Assembly (NCBI GenBank): GCA_965211635.1
Contig: OZ242948.1
Coordinates: forward strand, 1,460,653 to 1,524,652
DNA: 64,000 nt
Direction: 5' to 3'
From: Dehalococcoidia bacterium
GTDB lineage: Bacteria; Chloroflexota; Dehalococcoidia; Bin125
Under the pieces are notes generated by a model. That model was not told where the DNA came from, searched no databases, and saw nothing but the letters and a program-made list of their open reading frames with translations. Positions 21,578 to 28,051 of the stretch are shown here, in pieces. Each line of letters opens with the position of its first letter. Position 1 is the stretch's first letter. Position numbers and translations under genes: made by a program.

Positions 21578-22129
21578 ATGACCATCAAGCAACCCCCCGA
21601 CGCCACTGCCCAGGAACTGCTGAGCGCAGCCCGCGAGCTGGCTTGGTCCGACGACGAATCCGCCGCCGTCGACGCCTACGACTGCGCCATCCGCGCAGTC
21701 GAGCAGGCATTCCGCAGCATCGCCACGCCCGACAACCCCACCGACGACCTCGGCGTGATCCTCAAGCACTGGCAAGACCGTCCCGACCTCTGGTGCGAGG
21801 GCTACTCCAGTGTCCTGGATATCGACACGGTCATGCCGGTGCTCGCTGATCTCTGGGAGAGACGACCGGAAGCGGATGAGGCCTTCCCTGTGTCTCTCGA
21901 AGACGCCCGCACTGCGCTGGTAATCGCCGAATGGATCCTGAAGCTGTTCGACCTGGGCTTCATTGAACTCCTGGACGAACTCACGCCTGAGGAAGAGGCG
22001 GCGGATCTAGCGTTGGCGGAACAGCGATCGCGGGAGCGCGAAGAACGCAAGCGTCTCGGGGTGGAGGAGGAGACCATCCCGTGGGAGGAAGTGGAAGAGC
22101 GTCTTGCCGCCCGGTGGCGTAAGGAATGA
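21578..22129 (+). CDS. Antitoxin-like protein: unknown N-terminal domain plus C-terminal CHP02574-like addiction-module component
   Basis: C-terminal ...EETIPWEEVEERL tail typical of RelE-partner antitoxins; GGGAG ribosome-binding site 7 nt before the ATG; ATGA overlap with the RelE gene. Confidence 0.5.
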   Translation: MTIKQPPDATAQELLSAARELAWSDDESAAVDAYDCAIRAVEQAFRSIATPDNPTDDLGVILKHWQDRPDLWCEGYSSVLDIDTVMPVLADLWERRPEADEAFPVSLEDARTALVIAEWILKLFDLGFIELLDELTPEEEAADLALAEQRSREREERKRLGVEEETIPWEEVEERLAARWRKE

Positions 22130-22404
22130 CAGACAGGTCGCGGCTGCCCTATCGGGTCGTCACAGAGCCGAGAGTTGAACGGCAGTTGGCGCGTCTCGAG
22201 AGGCGGGACCTTGCTTCAGTCAGGAAGAAGATTCGCGGCCTCGCCGTCGAGCCTCGTCCGCGGCGAGTGCTCCACCTCGGAGACAGTGAGTATCGTGTGC
22301 GCCAGGGCAACTGGCGCATCTTCTACGACATCAATGACGCCGAGCGAATCGTCACCATCACCGACGTCCTACGCCGAAACGAACGCACCTATCGTGATCG
22401 CTAG
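22126..22404 (+). CDS. RelE/ParE family toxin
   Basis: Y.V......L..L...........I..L...P......L.G....YRVRQGNWRIFYDI.D....V.I..V..R..Y pattern. Confidence 0.75.
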   Translation: MTDRSRLPYRVVTEPRVERQLARLERRDLASVRKKIRGLAVEPRPRRVLHLGDSEYRVRQGNWRIFYDINDAERIVTITDVLRRNERTYRDR

Positions 22405-23009: not shown

Positions 23010-23615
23010 GTGCCGCTCTTTCGCCGAAATCCCGACGGGAACGCGTTCAATGAGCGACTCTCCTTGCCTTATGAGCTTAGGACTCAGGATTTCTCCCTTG
23101 TCATGCAGGACGTCTATGACTTCTTCTACGATGTGAACACTCATCTGCAGGGCAAGGGCATCAGGCGACTTGACGAAATGCTGCGACCAGCTGCAATGTC
23201 AGGCCTCATCTCCGACATGGTCTCGGCGAGTTTGGCTCGCCACTCACGAGTCTTGGTCGAGAATACCTATCACAACGGCCATCCGGACCTCATTGTTAAC
23301 GGAGTCTACCCGAACGACTCGGTCAAGTCCGGGTCGGAGGGCGTCGAGATCAAGACAACACGCAAACGCGGCGGCGCGGTTGATACTCACGGCGCACGCG
23401 ACCAATGGATGTGTGTGTTCGTCTACCAAGTCGACAACACTACGGAACCTGCCGTCGACAGAGCTCCAATGCGTTTCACAGAAATCTATCTTGGCCATGT
23501 GACGGTTGATGACTTTCGTCGGAATCCCCGCGGGGAGTTGGGAACGAGAACTGCGACCCTTGACAGATATGGCATTCGAAAGCTCCGCCAGAGCTGGGTG
23601 TACTTGGACACTTAA
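23010..23615 (+). CDS. Type II restriction endonuclease (PD-(D/E)xK)
   Basis: GHPDLIV...(20 aa)...EGVEIKT catalytic motif; lower GC (about 53%) than surroundings; convergent with and overlapping the MTase gene. Confidence 0.6.
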   Translation: MPLFRRNPDGNAFNERLSLPYELRTQDFSLVMQDVYDFFYDVNTHLQGKGIRRLDEMLRPAAMSGLISDMVSASLARHSRVLVENTYHNGHPDLIVNGVYPNDSVKSGSEGVEIKTTRKRGGAVDTHGARDQWMCVFVYQVDNTTEPAVDRAPMRFTEIYLGHVTVDDFRRNPRGELGTRTATLDRYGIRKLRQSWVYLDT

Positions 23616-24789
23616 TCTTCTCCAGTGCAGGAATAGCCGATTCGGCCACCTTCACATACCGGGAGTCGTGTTCTATGCCGACGCTACTGAACTCGAAGTG
23701 ATTGGCCGCCGCCAGAGTAGAGCCGGAGCCGGCAAACGGATCCAGGATGACGCCTTGCTCCATGGGCAGCGCCGCTCGAACCAGCTGCCTCAAGAACGCT
23801 TGTGGCTTCAACGACGGATGCGGCGCCAGTTCTTTCTCTTTGGGTCGCGTTGGACTCGATCTGATGACGTCGCCGAAAGGCCGTTGGTCCGACAACCTTC
23901 GTAAACCGCCTGTCCCCCAGGTCCTGAGGTTGTCTTGCACGCGGCCTTCCAGGGGCTTGCGAAACAGCAACCATGGTTCGGACATCGACCGGGGCATGAC
24001 AGTGACCTGCGAAAACTCATCATGGGCGTTCTTCGGGCGATCGCCACCGCGCATTGTCATCACGAGACGCGTCACAACCCCTCGGTTCTCGAGTCCCGAA
24101 CTCGCGAGGGCTGACGCGACCACATGCGACACCAGTGGATTGGAGGCGACGAACACATGGGCTCCAGGCACCAGCACTCTGGTTGCTTCGTGTCCAAGGC
24201 GATGAAAGAACTCACTCATGTATTGCAAGTCTGCGGCCTTTAGTGTCGTAAACCGAGGTACGGGCGACCTTTGGTGTCCATCAAACGATGGAGGGATTCT
24301 CCAAACACCGCCCTTGCCCTCGCGCAACTTCTGCTGCTCCGTCTCCGTGTACTCGACTAAGCCGTAAGGAGGGTCTGTGACTATCGCATGAAAGCTGTTC
24401 TCTGAGCAAGACCGGAACCACTCAAAGCAATCGGCTTGATACAGCGCTGCGCCTCCGTGTTCGAGTGTGGGAGCGTTGTAGTAGGCGACGGATTCCTCGA
24501 CAGATGGCCGGGCTCTCAAAGCGGTCCTCTTCAACCGATACAGACCATGCCCCGTTCTTTCAAATGTGTCGGGACGAAGCCGCAAGTACGACCGCACTGA
24601 GGACGCGGGTACGTGGCCAAGTTCTGCCTCAACGGCACTTCTGATCTCTGTCACGCTCGCATCTCCATACAGCCCGCCTAGGAAGCCGACTATCGCATCC
24701 CTGACGGTGCCTGGCGAGTGTTTGCGCTGTGTCACGCTGCGTCTCCTTGCGTCAGGGTTCAAGGTAGACGTCCAGACGTCAAAAGGCAA
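23476..24789 (-). CDS. Beta-class DNA methyltransferase (N4-C/N6-A) with N-terminal winged-helix-like extension
   Basis: Motif IV AIVTDPPYGL precedes motif I VILDPFAGSGSTLAAA (beta-class order); C-terminal tail overlaps the REase gene by about 140 nt. Confidence 0.8.
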   Translation of the reverse strand: MPFDVWTSTLNPDARRRSVTQRKHSPGTVRDAIVGFLGGLYGDASVTEIRSAVEAELGHVPASSVRSYLRLRPDTFERTGHGLYRLKRTALRARPSVEESVAYYNAPTLEHGGAALYQADCFEWFRSCSENSFHAIVTDPPYGLVEYTETEQQKLREGKGGVWRIPPSFDGHQRSPVPRFTTLKAADLQYMSEFFHRLGHEATRVLVPGAHVFVASNPLVSHVVASALASSGLENRGVVTRLVMTMRGGDRPKNAHDEFSQVTVMPRSMSEPWLLFRKPLEGRVQDNLRTWGTGGLRRLSDQRPFGDVIRSSPTRPKEKELAPHPSLKPQAFLRQLVRAALPMEQGVILDPFAGSGSTLAAANHFEFSSVGIEHDSRYVKVAESAIPALEKIKCPSTPSSGGAFECHICQGSQFSFPTPRGDSDESHQPSHGQDRFL

Positions 24790-24952
24790 GGCTCTGTCGA
24801 GCGGAGCCAGCGATGGAGCGGCGGAGCGGGACCCCCTCCGCCTTCGGCACTTCCCCCTGCAAGGGGGAGGGGGAAGAGTGAGGCCTGGGTCTCCAGAGGG
24901 ACAGGGGCGAGATCGTCAGTGGGCTAGACCAACCCGCACATACACTGACTGC

Positions 24953-25834
24953 ATGAGCTCCCGCGATGCGACCTGCTATCGGCATACGGATACCTGGGCG
25001 GGGGTTCTTTGCCAGCGTTGCAACCGGCCGATATGCACGCAGTGCATGGTTCAGGCTCCGGTCGGCTTTCAGTGTCCGGAGTGCGTGGCCGAGGGGCGGC
25101 GACGGACTCGCGAGTGGTCGACGGCGTCGCCTTACCGGGTCACACAGGCGTTGGCGCTGGTCAACGCGCTGATCTGGCTGGTCGTATCGGTGTACACGGG
25201 GTCGCTGTCGCTGTGGGGCAGCGGTGTCAGCGAGATTCACCGCGACTTTGCGCTGCACGGGGCGTTTGTGCATGAGGAGGGCGAGTGGTGGCGGCTGGCT
25301 ACGTCGGCGTTCCTGCACTACGGGCTGCTGCACATGGTGATGAACATGTTCATCCTCGTGCTGCTGGGTCGGATGCTGGAGCCGGCGATCGGCGGCTGGA
25401 GGATGCTGCTGCTGTACGCGGTGTCGCTGACCGGCGGCGCGCTGGGCGCGCTGCTGGTCGAGCCGAACGCGTTCACGGCGGGGGCGTCGGGCTCGGTCTT
25501 CGGCTTGGCCGGCGCGGTGGTGATCGCCGAGCGAGCATCGGGTCGGCGCTGGCAGGACTCGGGCATCCTGGTGTTCCTGATCATCAACATCGTCTTCTCG
25601 CTGCTGATTCCAAGGATCAGCATCGGCGGACACCTGGGCGGGATGATCGTGGGCGCCGTGGCGGCGTTGATCCTCTGGAGTTTCCCCAACTGGACGGGAT
25701 TCATCCGCACGGCGACGAACATCAAGGTGCTGCGTCCGCTGCCGGAGCTGTCGGTCTTCGGACTGGGCGTGCTCTGCGTCTACCTGGCGCTGGAGCTGGC
25801 GGCGCCTCGCTGGTCGGATCCGCTCTTCGGGTAG
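24953..25834 (+). CDS. Rhomboid-family intramembrane serine protease with N-terminal zinc ribbon
   Basis: C..C.....C..C zinc ribbon; GASGSVFGL (catalytic Ser) and GHLGG (catalytic His); multiple TM helices. Confidence 0.8.
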   Translation: MSSRDATCYRHTDTWAGVLCQRCNRPICTQCMVQAPVGFQCPECVAEGRRRTREWSTASPYRVTQALALVNALIWLVVSVYTGSLSLWGSGVSEIHRDFALHGAFVHEEGEWWRLATSAFLHYGLLHMVMNMFILVLLGRMLEPAIGGWRMLLLYAVSLTGGALGALLVEPNAFTAGASGSVFGLAGAVVIAERASGRRWQDSGILVFLIINIVFSLLIPRISIGGHLGGMIVGAVAALILWSFPNWTGFIRTATNIKVLRPLPELSVFGLGVLCVYLALELAAPRWSDPLFG

Positions 25835-26021: not shown

Positions 26022-26798
26022 ATGAGTGATCGATTCGAAGGCAAGGTGGCAATCGTGACCGGCGCGGCCGGGGGCATTGGACGGGCGGCGTGTGTGCGAT
26101 TCGCGTCGGACGGCGCGAAGGTGGTCGCGGTCGATCTGGCGGGCTCTGACCTGGACGAAACCGTGGCTGCGATCTCTAACGCTGGCGGCGAGTGCATCAC
26201 GGTCGAGGCCGACGTGACGCAGGAATCGGACGTAGCCAACTACGTGGCCGAGGCGCTGTCGGCCTACGGTCGCGTTGACGCCTTCTTCAACAACGCCGGC
26301 ATCGAGGGCGTACGCTCGGCGCTGACCGAACTGGACGAAGCCGACTTCGATCGTGTGATCGCGGTCAACCTCAAGGGGGTCTGGCTGGGGATGAAGCACG
26401 TCGCGCCGGCGATCCAGCAGTCGGGCGGCGGGGCGATTGTCAACACCGCGTCGATCGCCGGTCTGTCGCCGACACCGGGCATCATCGCCTACGGCGCGTC
26501 CAAGCACGCGGTGGTCGGGATGACCAAGTCGGCCGCGCAGGAGCTCGCGCCCGACATTCGCGTCAACGCGGTCTGCCCGGGACCGATCGAGACGCGCATG
26601 ATGCGCTCGTTGGAGCGCCAGTTCGATCCGGACAATCCCGAGGCCGTCCACCAGATGTTCGCCGCATCCAATCCCATGGGTCGCTACGGCGAGCCGGAGG
26701 AAGTCGCCTCGCTGGTCACGTGGCTGTGCTCGGATGACAGCGTGTACATCAACGGAGCGGCCCACACGATCGACGGCGGCGGCAATCGGGGACGCTAG
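26022..26798 (+). CDS. SDR-family oxidoreductase
   Basis: TGAAGGIGRA Rossmann motif; NNAG; YGASK catalytic tetrad. Confidence 0.85.
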   Translation: MSDRFEGKVAIVTGAAGGIGRAACVRFASDGAKVVAVDLAGSDLDETVAAISNAGGECITVEADVTQESDVANYVAEALSAYGRVDAFFNNAGIEGVRSALTELDEADFDRVIAVNLKGVWLGMKHVAPAIQQSGGGAIVNTASIAGLSPTPGIIAYGASKHAVVGMTKSAAQELAPDIRVNAVCPGPIETRMMRSLERQFDPDNPEAVHQMFAASNPMGRYGEPEEVASLVTWLCSDDSVYINGAAHTIDGGGNRGR

Positions 26799-28051
26799 CG
26801 GTCTTGTTGCTCGCTGAGTCTGGTTCGCTGGACGATGGCGCGATCGATCAGACCATCAATGGTGGGGTCGACGTTGCGCAGAACTATGCGGGACATGAAC
26901 GCTCGCGGGCCAAGCTCCACGAATAGTCGGCCGAACACCTCGTCGGCGAAGCTGCTTGTTATGACATTTACGCCGGCGAAGTCCACGACGACCTGGCCTT
27001 GAACCCTGAGGAGGTTTCGCAGCTCTTGCCGCACTCGGGCACCCCCTCGTCTCGACCCGAGATCTCGTCCTGCATGTTGCGAGATCGCGTACAGGGTCTC
27101 GCCGATGTCCGTCTCAAATGTCCGCTCGACGTAGTCGCTCGCAATCTGGTGAGTCTCACCGTCGAATCGAAGCGCCTCTTCGAGGAGCTGACCATCGAAG
27201 CGCCCAATTGAACAGCGAACCGAGGTACCCGGAAGGGAGACTTGATCCTCGCGGATGTGCGGTTCCGGGAGACTACTGTCAGATCTGAGCACCGCCCTCA
27301 GCGAATGGACTTCGAACTCTCCGTGAGAGACGGCGGAGATTCGGCGACTGCCGTACAGACCGTTGCCCGCGTTCGACATGCGATCACGAGTACCACCTTC
27401 GGAAACAGCCTCCAACAGCGCCTGTTTTTCGTCTTCCATGGTCAGACTACCGGGAATCCCTATTCCGGCGTCTGCAACAACAAACTCGATGAATGACGGA
27501 TCTTCGGAGGCTTGAACAAATCCTCCTACTGTCGACTGAGCATGAGTAAGGACATTCTCTGTCACTTCGTTGATCGACCACTCCAGGGCCTTGAGCGTCC
27601 CGCGCCCGATGTCTCGACCTCGCAACAGAAACCGCAACAGATCATTGATCGCATCGGACATCTCCGAATGGTTCACGTATCTCCTAACAGGTACCCGATC
27701 TTGAGCCTCGCTTAACGCTGCAAACTCCTCTGGTTGAATAAAGTGCGCCCAGTTAGTACGGACAAATTTGTCATTCAGTGATGATTCAAGTGAGGATCCC
27801 GTAGCGTCGGGCAGCTTCAGATCGAACTGAGCGCCATGCTCCTCGCGATACCGGACTATCTGAGGGAGAATTGGTAACATCACCGCCTGGGTCAGGTTGG
27901 CGCAGGCGCCAAAATCTAACTGGACTCTGTCTGTTCCGCCTTCATCAATCGTCTGCCGCAAGCCTTCGAAGAGCAATCGAATTGCTTGCGTGTCCGCGAT
28001 TTCGCCCCTGGCGGTGACCGTATCGTCGGACCAGAGAATCTCGAACGACAC
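26795..28051 (-). CDS. Three-domain protein: N-terminal STAS-like, RsbW-like GHKL Ser-kinase/ATPase, C-terminal DUF4325 (STAS-like)
   Basis: E..N..H N-box (EWSINEVTENVLTHAQ) and VADAGIGIP G1-box; C-terminal VVVDFAGVNVITSSFADEVFG...RIVLRNV as in DUF4325; GC about 50-57%, well below the flanks. Confidence 0.6.
   Translation of the reverse strand: MSFEILWSDDTVTARGEIADTQAIRLLFEGLRQTIDEGGTDRVQLDFGACANLTQAVMLPILPQIVRYREEHGAQFDLKLPDATGSSLESSLNDKFVRTNWAHFIQPEEFAALSEAQDRVPVRRYVNHSEMSDAINDLLRFLLRGRDIGRGTLKALEWSINEVTENVLTHAQSTVGGFVQASEDPSFIEFVVADAGIGIPGSLTMEDEKQALLEAVSEGGTRDRMSNAGNGLYGSRRISAVSHGEFEVHSLRAVLRSDSSLPEPHIREDQVSLPGTSVRCSIGRFDGQLLEEALRFDGETHQIASDYVERTFETDIGETLYAISQHAGRDLGSRRGGARVRQELRNLLRVQGQVVVDFAGVNVITSSFADEVFGRLFVELGPRAFMSRIVLRNVDPTIDGLIDRAIVQRTRLSEQQDR

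Follow-up and report, generated by a model that had tools for sequence, protein, structure and literature searches.

A Type II restriction-modification gene pair with a probable winged-helix autorepressor built into its methylase in a Dehalococcoidia genome

The stretch of DNA analysed here, referred to as the window, comprises 64,000 nucleotides of a Dehalococcoidia bacterium (assembly GCA_965211635.1, contig OZ242948.1, positions 1,460,653 to 1,524,652 of the forward strand); all coordinates below are those of the window. It carries two convergent genes with overlapping 3' ends, one for a candidate restriction endonuclease (23010 to 23615, plus strand) and one for a beta-class DNA amino-methyltransferase, hereafter the methylase (23476 to 24735, minus strand). 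We conclude that the two genes probably constitute an intact Type II restriction-modification (R-M) module, in which the methylase has a built-in winged-helix controller that would repress its own promoter through the sequence GACGTC-NN-GACGTC.

Gene pair, linkage and distribution

The endonuclease consists of 201 amino acids and follows a GTG start. Its motif GHPDLIV...EGVEIKT, read as a PD-ExK motif in a first-pass annotation of this DNA, is well preserved among relatives with 28-86% identity. Residues P92, G111 and K115 are invariant and E113 is nearly so, and the catalytic arrangement P92-D93...E113-x-K115 persists, invariant or nearly invariant, down to 28% identity. Structurally, the model of the protein matches NaeI, SwaI, ThaI, EcoRV and PvuII, and nearly every top-ranking fold match is a Type II restriction enzyme. 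Motif and modelled fold together point to a PD-(D/E)xK endonuclease of the EcoRV/NaeI structural branch, at an identity of just 8-14% to the NaeI, EcoRV, PvuII, SwaI and ThaI enzymes. In the clade to which the window belongs, the endonuclease codons diverge by 0.09, 0.04 and 0.43 at positions 1, 2 and 3, respectively, which indicates that the gene is under purifying selection. The family comprises more than 8000 database clusters at 73-86% identity, nearly all of about 201 amino acids and labelled hypothetical or not at all, and 682 representatives at the 50%-identity level. Neither Pfam nor NCBIfam has a model for it. A name for the family would set many annotations right and benefit the catalogues of defence systems.

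The methylase consists of 419 amino acids and matches the N6_N4_Mtase family (PF01555) at 4e-19 and the PADLOC profile MTase_II (PDLC03215) at 3e-107. Catalytic motif IV, DPPY (24364 to 24375, minus strand; residues 121-124 of 419), precedes the S-adenosylmethionine-binding motif I, DPFAGSGST (23716 to 23742, minus strand; residues 332-340 of 419), and the columns of both motifs are invariant in homologues. In a Foldseek search, the AlphaFold model of the core matched TTHA0409, CcrM, M.BceJIV, M.MboIIA, M.PvuII and M.RsrI, all of the beta class, with E values of 1e-14 to 1e-9, and also a rotifer N4-cytosine methylase and M1.HpyAVI. Motif order, Pfam match and fold matches thus all agree with the beta-class order assigned in the first pass. 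The structural neighbours include N4-cytosine and N6-adenine enzymes alike. A DPPY motif favours adenine as the modified base, and it suggests that the enzyme carries out N6-adenine methylation. The insertions between the motifs are poorly modelled by AlphaFold2 (AF2), and homologues come in forms of 419, 393 and 318 amino acids.

Linkage of the two genes was followed in 80 loci from species genomes and 80 from metagenomes, gathered with the endonuclease as query; a few loci were added through exact-protein look-ups and plasmid matches, and all open reading frames (ORFs) were scanned with hidden Markov models. Both genes are complete in 144 loci, and they are adjacent in every one of these (144/144), with 119 convergent arrangements and 25 tandem arrangements in which the methylase gene comes first. 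The hosts belong to the Chloroflexota, among whose Dehalococcoidia the closest relatives are found, and to the Acidobacteriota, Nitrospirota, Planctomycetota, Alpha-, Beta-, Gamma- and Deltaproteobacteria and Actinomycetota. A search of 185,579 species genomes of bacteria and archaea found relatives in about 500. Klebsiella and Citrobacter also carry the pair on mobilizable ColE1-type plasmids of 4.9 kb, with hardly any other cargo listed. Mobile R-M modules typically show this combination of adjacency and small mobilizable plasmids. The Type II R-M pair proposed in the first pass is therefore borne out by the linkage, the PD-ExK motif, the restriction-enzyme fold and the beta-class methylase fold.

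The plasmids are represented by pCAV1321-4938 of Citrobacter freundii (locus L006) and by near-identical plasmids of 4938 bp in Klebsiella, all from clinical isolates; in these plasmids the endonuclease is annotated as hypothetical. A paper on plasmid pCS36-4CPA was considered as a source on this system and set aside, as it concerns an unrelated one.

The guanine-plus-cytosine (GC) content of positions 23010 to 24789 is 57.2%, higher than the approximately 53% given in the first pass and still below the 64.9% of the 64-kb window. Within the clade, the gene order SDR, rhomboid, methylase, endonuclease is conserved at 79-86% protein identity, followed by a DUF2188 gene in the window and in locus L170. 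Because this synteny is conserved, the acquisition predates the divergence of the organisms in the clade, and a recent gain of the pair was rejected. The earlier suggestion of horizontal acquisition thus holds for the family, given its low GC content, identities of at least 70% across phyla and occurrence on small plasmids, but not as a recent event at this locus.

For both proteins the start had to be chosen between two forms. The methylase frame is open upstream to a TTG at 24789, from which the longest listed ORF (23476 to 24789, minus strand) encodes 437 amino acids, and the first-pass annotation had begun the gene there. The GTG at 24735 is the most likely start, because it is preceded at a distance of 7 nt by the Shine-Dalgarno-like AAGGAG (24743 to 24748, minus strand), and because database protein P0121, 100% identical to the methylase, and its closest homologues all have 419 amino acids. 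The TTG at 24789 instead opens the likely -35 hexamer. Database protein P0008, 100% identical to the endonuclease, has just 170 amino acids, and its public annotation seemingly starts at Met32, omitting positions 23010 to 23102. Since residues 1-31 are kept in homologues, including a nearly invariant P20, and are modelled with high confidence, the 201-residue form is preferred and the public annotation is probably truncated.

Winged-helix domain, operator and proposed switch

The N-terminal residues 1-70 of the methylase (24526 to 24735, minus strand) form the proposed autorepressor module. AF2 predicts helices at residues 8-20, 28-39 and 44-53 and strands at residues 58-62 and 65-68, with a predicted local distance difference test score (pLDDT) of about 90, followed by a disordered linker at residues 72-84. 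This domain of approximately 70 amino acids includes the sequence GHGLYRLKR. A winged-helix-like extension of about 100 residues, possibly a fused controller, had been noted in the first pass: the predicted fold, a stand-alone gene for the same domain and a linked double palindrome in the promoter all speak for this suggestion. A Pfam-type scan of the methylase N-terminus gave no match to HTH_3 or other Xre-type families. Searched with a profile of the domain, the PDB sequences returned solely one spurious designed repeat, and the domain is left without a family assignment; a profile of the domain also retrieved hundreds of stand-alone proteins of 69-80 amino acids.

The domain also occurs as a gene of its own within the R-M module. 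At loci L172/L173 and L174, a 75-residue winged-helix gene overlaps by 4 nt with the start of a 318-residue methylase gene that lacks the domain; the operator sequence lies 5' of the stand-alone gene, and the endonuclease gene converges on the methylase gene. Other split or frameshifted forms are found at L023, L067, L088, L155 and L160. The presence of the domain follows the layout of the genes, with the winged helix in 96 of 100 convergent loci and in none of 19 tandem loci (p = 2e-18). The endonuclease timing proposed below would account for this restriction to convergent layouts, as in tandem operons, with the methylase gene before the endonuclease gene, gene order can do that job. A tandem sub-family with this order (L029, L036, L041, L042, L047, L052, L059, L065, L066, L070, L071, L077 and L086, mostly Acidobacteriaceae) has neither winged helix nor GACGTC box and represents a different regulatory solution.

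The likely methylase promoter (24761 to 24789, minus strand), proposed by comparison with relatives, is composed of a -35 box TTGCCT (24789-24784) and a -10 box TACCTT (24766-24761), both read from the sequence, and a 17-nt spacer. This spacer contains the proposed operator GACGTCTGGACGTC (24780-24767, minus strand), which follows the pattern GACGTC-NN-GACGTC. The exact pattern occurs as a single copy in the window, at this promoter. In relatives, the arrangement TTGACA-N3-4-GACGTC-NN-GACGTC-TAnnnT is nearly always found 5' of the winged-helix coding sequence, often with the start codon no more than about 10 nt past TAnnnT, and the window is in the same register. The hexamers are perfect 6-bp palindromes, and the two central bases vary freely among relatives. 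The plasmids of the L006 type have a third GACGTC, located 22 nt upstream of the double box.

When non-redundant loci with enough upstream sequence were compared, we observed a close association between domain and operator. The exact double hexamer is present within 130 nt upstream in 91 of the 96 loci with a winged helix (89 fused, 7 split), as opposed to 1 of the 23 loci without it (Fisher p = 3e-18). Three of the five domain-bearing loci without the exact operator have one mismatch in one hexamer. The sole operator-positive locus without the domain, L048, lies on a metagenome-assembled contig of Alphaproteobacteria. Its methylase has an N-terminal extension of about 94 amino acids that is unrecognised by the winged-helix profile, and GACGTC-NN-GACGTC is placed about 350 nt upstream of the catalytic core; the extension may be a divergent or replaced controller domain. 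The simplest reading of the association, drawn from this comparison, is that the winged helix serves as an autorepressor of the methylase promoter. As the operator lies in the spacer between the -35 and -10 boxes, a protein bound to it would exclude RNA polymerase.

We postulate that the winged helix, carried on its flexible linker, would bind the double palindrome filling the 17-nt spacer, and that transcription of the methylase gene would be repressed once enough methylase has accumulated. In a newly colonised cell, as yet unrepressed methylase transcription, driven from a near-consensus promoter, would read antisense through the endonuclease gene and hold the endonuclease down. Later autorepression would lift this antisense transcription, and the methylase would appear first and the endonuclease second, with no regulator on the endonuclease side. 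The promoter and terminator scan predicted no intrinsic terminator between or within the 3' ends of the two genes. Antisense coupling of the two genes through their overlap, suggested in the first pass, is plausible. Timing of the endonuclease by antisense transcription or collision, with methylase read-through as its source, is a reasonable guess by analogy with Ecl18kI, where promoters interfere, and with EcoRI and Eco29kI, where antisense transcripts are proposed (PMC2760811, PMC3141266, PMC12707154), although we lean slightly against it.

Gene overlap, alternative readings and genomic setting

The coding regions overlap tail to tail by 140 nt (23476 to 23615, both strands). Coordinates and overlap, as listed in the first-pass annotation, were found again in the ORF listing. 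Overlapping 3' ends are present in 103 of the 119 convergent loci and absent from 16, and the overlaps cluster at 4, 13, 16 and 38 nt, with 62 nt in one subgroup. Overlaps of 140-188 nt are found in the Chloroflexota clade of the window; the sole other overlap above 100 nt (110 nt) belongs to an unplaced metagenome locus. An assembly or frameshift artefact was considered and rejected, because overlaps of this range recur in independent assemblies of seven relatives of the clade. The methylase stop falls at the same place in all eight clade members (8/8), since the conserved Phe-Thr codons of the endonuclease (TTCAC) create a TGA on the other strand.

The part of the methylase encoded in the overlap is divided into a proximal tail with the pattern C-x11-C-x2-C-x-G (23557 to 23610, minus strand; residues 376-393), antisense to the last endonuclease codons, and a distal tail (23476 to 23556, minus strand; residues 394-419 and the stop), which is confined to the Chloroflexota clade and reads on into the endonuclease gene. 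In the eight clade members, third-position divergence of the endonuclease is 0.43 outside the overlap, 0.35 opposite the distal tail and 0.16 opposite the proximal tail. For the pooled overlap it is 0.27, a value reached by none of 500 bootstrap subsamples of non-overlap codons. Since codon position 3 of the endonuclease faces codon position 2 of the methylase, a synonymous change in the former alters the partner protein. Groups whose overlap stops short of these codons show no dip in divergence, in a comparison that is near saturation. Forms of 318, 393 and 419 residues from several phyla all retain the proximal 18 residues with their three cysteines. Because they are conserved in the shorter forms of other phyla, these residues appear to be selected, as judged from the aligned sequences. 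The distal 26 residues look like incidental read-on, and the length of 140 nt is probably incidental as well. Whether the C-terminal tail is conserved or junk, a question left by the first pass, thus receives a divided answer, with the first 18 residues constrained and the distal 26 barely so. In any case, the overlap offers a clean small example of dual-coding constraint.

These observations raise the possibility that overlap and tail are themselves functional, either as a zinc-binding C-x11-C-x2-C knuckle needed for activity or as a selected stretch of antisense pairing by which the endonuclease-to-methylase ratio is set. The drop in synonymous divergence from 0.43 to 0.16 lies exactly opposite the cysteine motif, the cysteines are retained across forms and phyla, and the stop position is shared, all of which speak for a functional tail. 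Yet we regard this proposal as doubtful: many family members do without the tail, short overlaps (4-38 nt) or a lack of overlap are met most often, AF2 predicts disorder throughout the tail (pLDDT <45), the distal residues show almost no extra constraint, and the conserved TTCAC codons explain the shared stop.

The reading of the locus as an autoregulated R-M module has several observations against it. The promoter boxes in the window are weak (TTGCCT, TACCTT), and a generic sigma-70 scan missed the methylase promoter. As 6-bp palindromes, the operator half-sites suit a methylase target as well as or better than the half-site of a winged helix, and the winged helix itself remains below the Pfam cut-offs, with Pfam giving weak winged-helix-family matches alone. 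Upstream of the endonuclease gene, a conserved element was looked for across the loci and none was found, and control of the endonuclease is for this reason entirely inferred; at several loci the gene directly follows an unrelated host gene. The endonuclease gave no match in Pfam, NCBIfam, PHROGs or the PDB sequences, and it matched none of the curated restriction-enzyme families, apart from a sole, weak match to PADLOC REase_II (E = 0.0034). Among the records listed, the named public records of the 201-residue protein all say hypothetical.

The palindromic nature of the half-sites leads to a different view of the switch. Because each half is a perfect palindrome and the central bases are free, as is typical of a Type IIP target, GACGTC could be the system's own target, with the specificity of AatII and ZraI. 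The promoter hexamers would then be cognate sites, and methylase levels would be set by their methylation or by their occupancy by the catalytic domain, as in AhdI and CfrBI. The closest structural matches of the endonuclease, which we take to be mostly blunt cutters, would suit a ZraI-like GAC^GTC cut, and the DPPY motif fits an N6-adenine enzyme. In GACGTC, the base modified by M.AatII is the adenine (PMC3287169), and AhdI shuts down its methylase promoter through methylation of the AhdI sites within it (PMC5333194). Nevertheless, GACGTC is not avoided, with 30 sites observed and 35 expected in the window and an observed/expected ratio of 0.86 over 0.98 Mb of host flanks, and at least 15 palindromes are more depleted. 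Furthermore, the sites follow the winged helix: they are absent upstream of 19 of 19 tandem methylases and of the convergent methylase of L005, which lacks the domain, and present 5' of the stand-alone 75-residue winged-helix gene. We therefore consider GACGTC unlikely to be the target. It is similarly improbable that, with such a target, the winged helix reads the methylation state or adds affinity, an arrangement that would change the mechanism of the switch but not the identity of the R-M module. If it were true, the switch would sense the methylation state directly. The literature on GACGTC methylomes and on the gene sequences of ZraI and AatII yielded nothing usable beyond the N6-methyladenine result for M.AatII.

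The lack of a match to curated restriction-enzyme families, a level of conservation that is unusual among restriction enzymes (identities of at least 70% between phyla) and weaker fold matches of the 201-residue protein to DpnI, MutH and Holliday-junction resolvases would suit some other methylase-associated nuclease, acting in repair or nicking or dependent on modification, in a pair that is not a restriction system; this is very improbable, as Type II restriction enzymes make up nearly all of the top fold matches, one-to-one adjacency to the methylase in two gene orders and on 4.9-kb mobilizable plasmids is the standard R-M signature, and a methylase-first device makes sense only if the partner is toxic to unmethylated DNA.

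Depletion was seen for other palindromes. CAGCTG, the PvuII site, is under-represented in the window (7 observed, 30 expected) and is the most depleted 6-bp palindrome over the 0.98 Mb of host flanks (observed/expected 0.51); ATGCAT is absent from the window (6.9 expected). Such depletion is common among palindromes and could stem from other R-M systems or from general palindrome avoidance, and no conclusion is drawn from it.

On the methylase side, the pair is bordered by a rhomboid protease gene (24950 to 25834, plus strand) whose product has an N-terminal cysteine-rich stretch with a weak match to a B-box zinc finger (E = 0.006). The listed ORF for this gene begins at 24566, a spurious upstream extension that crosses the region of the methylase promoter. 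On the endonuclease side lies a ParE-family toxin gene (22126 to 22404, plus strand; PF05016 at 3e-08), which overlaps by 4 nt with an upstream ORF of 183 amino acids (21578 to 22129). The latter has no family match and probably encodes the antitoxin. The toxin-antitoxin pair looks like an insertion beside the R-M module, because in L170 the DUF2188 gene is followed directly by an aspartyl-protease-like gene. A second patch of low GC content (55.7% at 27001 to 28000) holds the gene for a 418-residue protein (26795 to 28051, minus strand) with HATPase_c and STAS-like DUF4325 domains and a partial match to PADLOC DrmA (1.7e-21); this gene, too, may serve defence or have been gained horizontally.

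Comparison with known systems

The catalytic part of the methylase resembles M.RsrI, CcrM, M.PvuII, M.MboIIA, M.BceJIV and TTHA0409 in the placement of motif IV before motif I (DPFxGSG), in the PF01555 match and in the fold. It differs from these beta-class enzymes by the additional N-terminal winged helix and by the cysteine-bearing C-terminal tail.

In its regulatory logic, the module comes close to the SsoII group. The methylase of Ecl18kI and SsoII has an N-terminal helix-turn-helix (HTH) that shuts down the promoter of its own gene, by which the endonuclease promoter is freed from interference (PMC2760811, PMC12707154), and autorepression as a principle has been established for the C5-cytosine (C5) methylases SsoII, Ecl18kI and EcoRII (PMC2760811, PMC3978073, PMC12707154). 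Shared with SsoII and Ecl18kI, and also with MspI and EcoRII, are the putative N-terminal DNA-binding domain on a flexible linker, the proposed palindromic operator in the methylase's own promoter and the proposed logic of autorepression, in which the endonuclease is released indirectly as promoter competition or interference declines. In this group, however, the genes for a C5-cytosine methylase and its endonuclease diverge from a region with one 15-bp inverted repeat, whereas the present module comprises a beta-class amino-methylase, convergent overlapping genes and paired 6-bp palindromes in the spacer between the -35 and -10 boxes. Moreover, its winged helix also exists as a free-standing gene, and no sequence relationship between the two kinds of domain was found. 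Since catalytic class, layout and DNA-binding fold all differ, the module is not a member of the SsoII group.

A second comparison concerns systems with C proteins, such as AhdI, Esp1396I, PvuII and Kpn2I. The split forms resemble them in having a small DNA-binding protein and a duplicated palindromic box before its own gene, and AhdI and Esp1396I also have convergent layouts (PMC5333194). C proteins are Xre-type HTH proteins of about 80 amino acids; their genes share a transcript with the endonuclease gene, and they act as activators before they turn to repression. By contrast, the winged helix belongs to the methylase, either as part of one protein or through co-transcription, and the box is placed where only repression would be expected. 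With no Xre HTH and with a controller tied to the methylase instead of the endonuclease, the module is not a C-protein system.

The proposed restraint of the endonuclease has its nearest counterpart in EcoRI and Eco29kI, for which transcription antisense to the endonuclease gene has been proposed to lower or delay its expression (PMC3141266, PMC12707154). There, the antisense RNAs arise from dedicated reverse promoters inside a tandem operon with the endonuclease gene first, whereas here the antisense transcript would be read-through of the methylase mRNA.

Taken together, the module would operate as a Type IIP R-M system whose methylase doubles as a regulator. The R-M pair itself is ordinary; of moderate interest are its regulatory architecture, the endonuclease family, which lacks annotation, and the dual-coding tail. 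In the literature searched, to which REBASE did not belong, the fused repressor-methylases were C5 enzymes with divergent genes only (PMC12707154). We tentatively suggest that the locus stands for a large class of Type II R-M systems, undescribed in the searched sources, with a winged-helix controller that is fused to or located just upstream of an amino-methyltransferase and acts on the methylase promoter as a repressor by way of a double GACGTC box. That, in addition, the endonuclease of this class is kept in check by the convergent overlapping methylase transcript while the module settles in a new host is a joint claim that we put forward with the same reserve. If true, the principle of the repressor-methylase, known from C5 enzymes, would extend to amino-methylases with convergent genes, with a very clear operator and with the controller occurring in natural fused and split versions.

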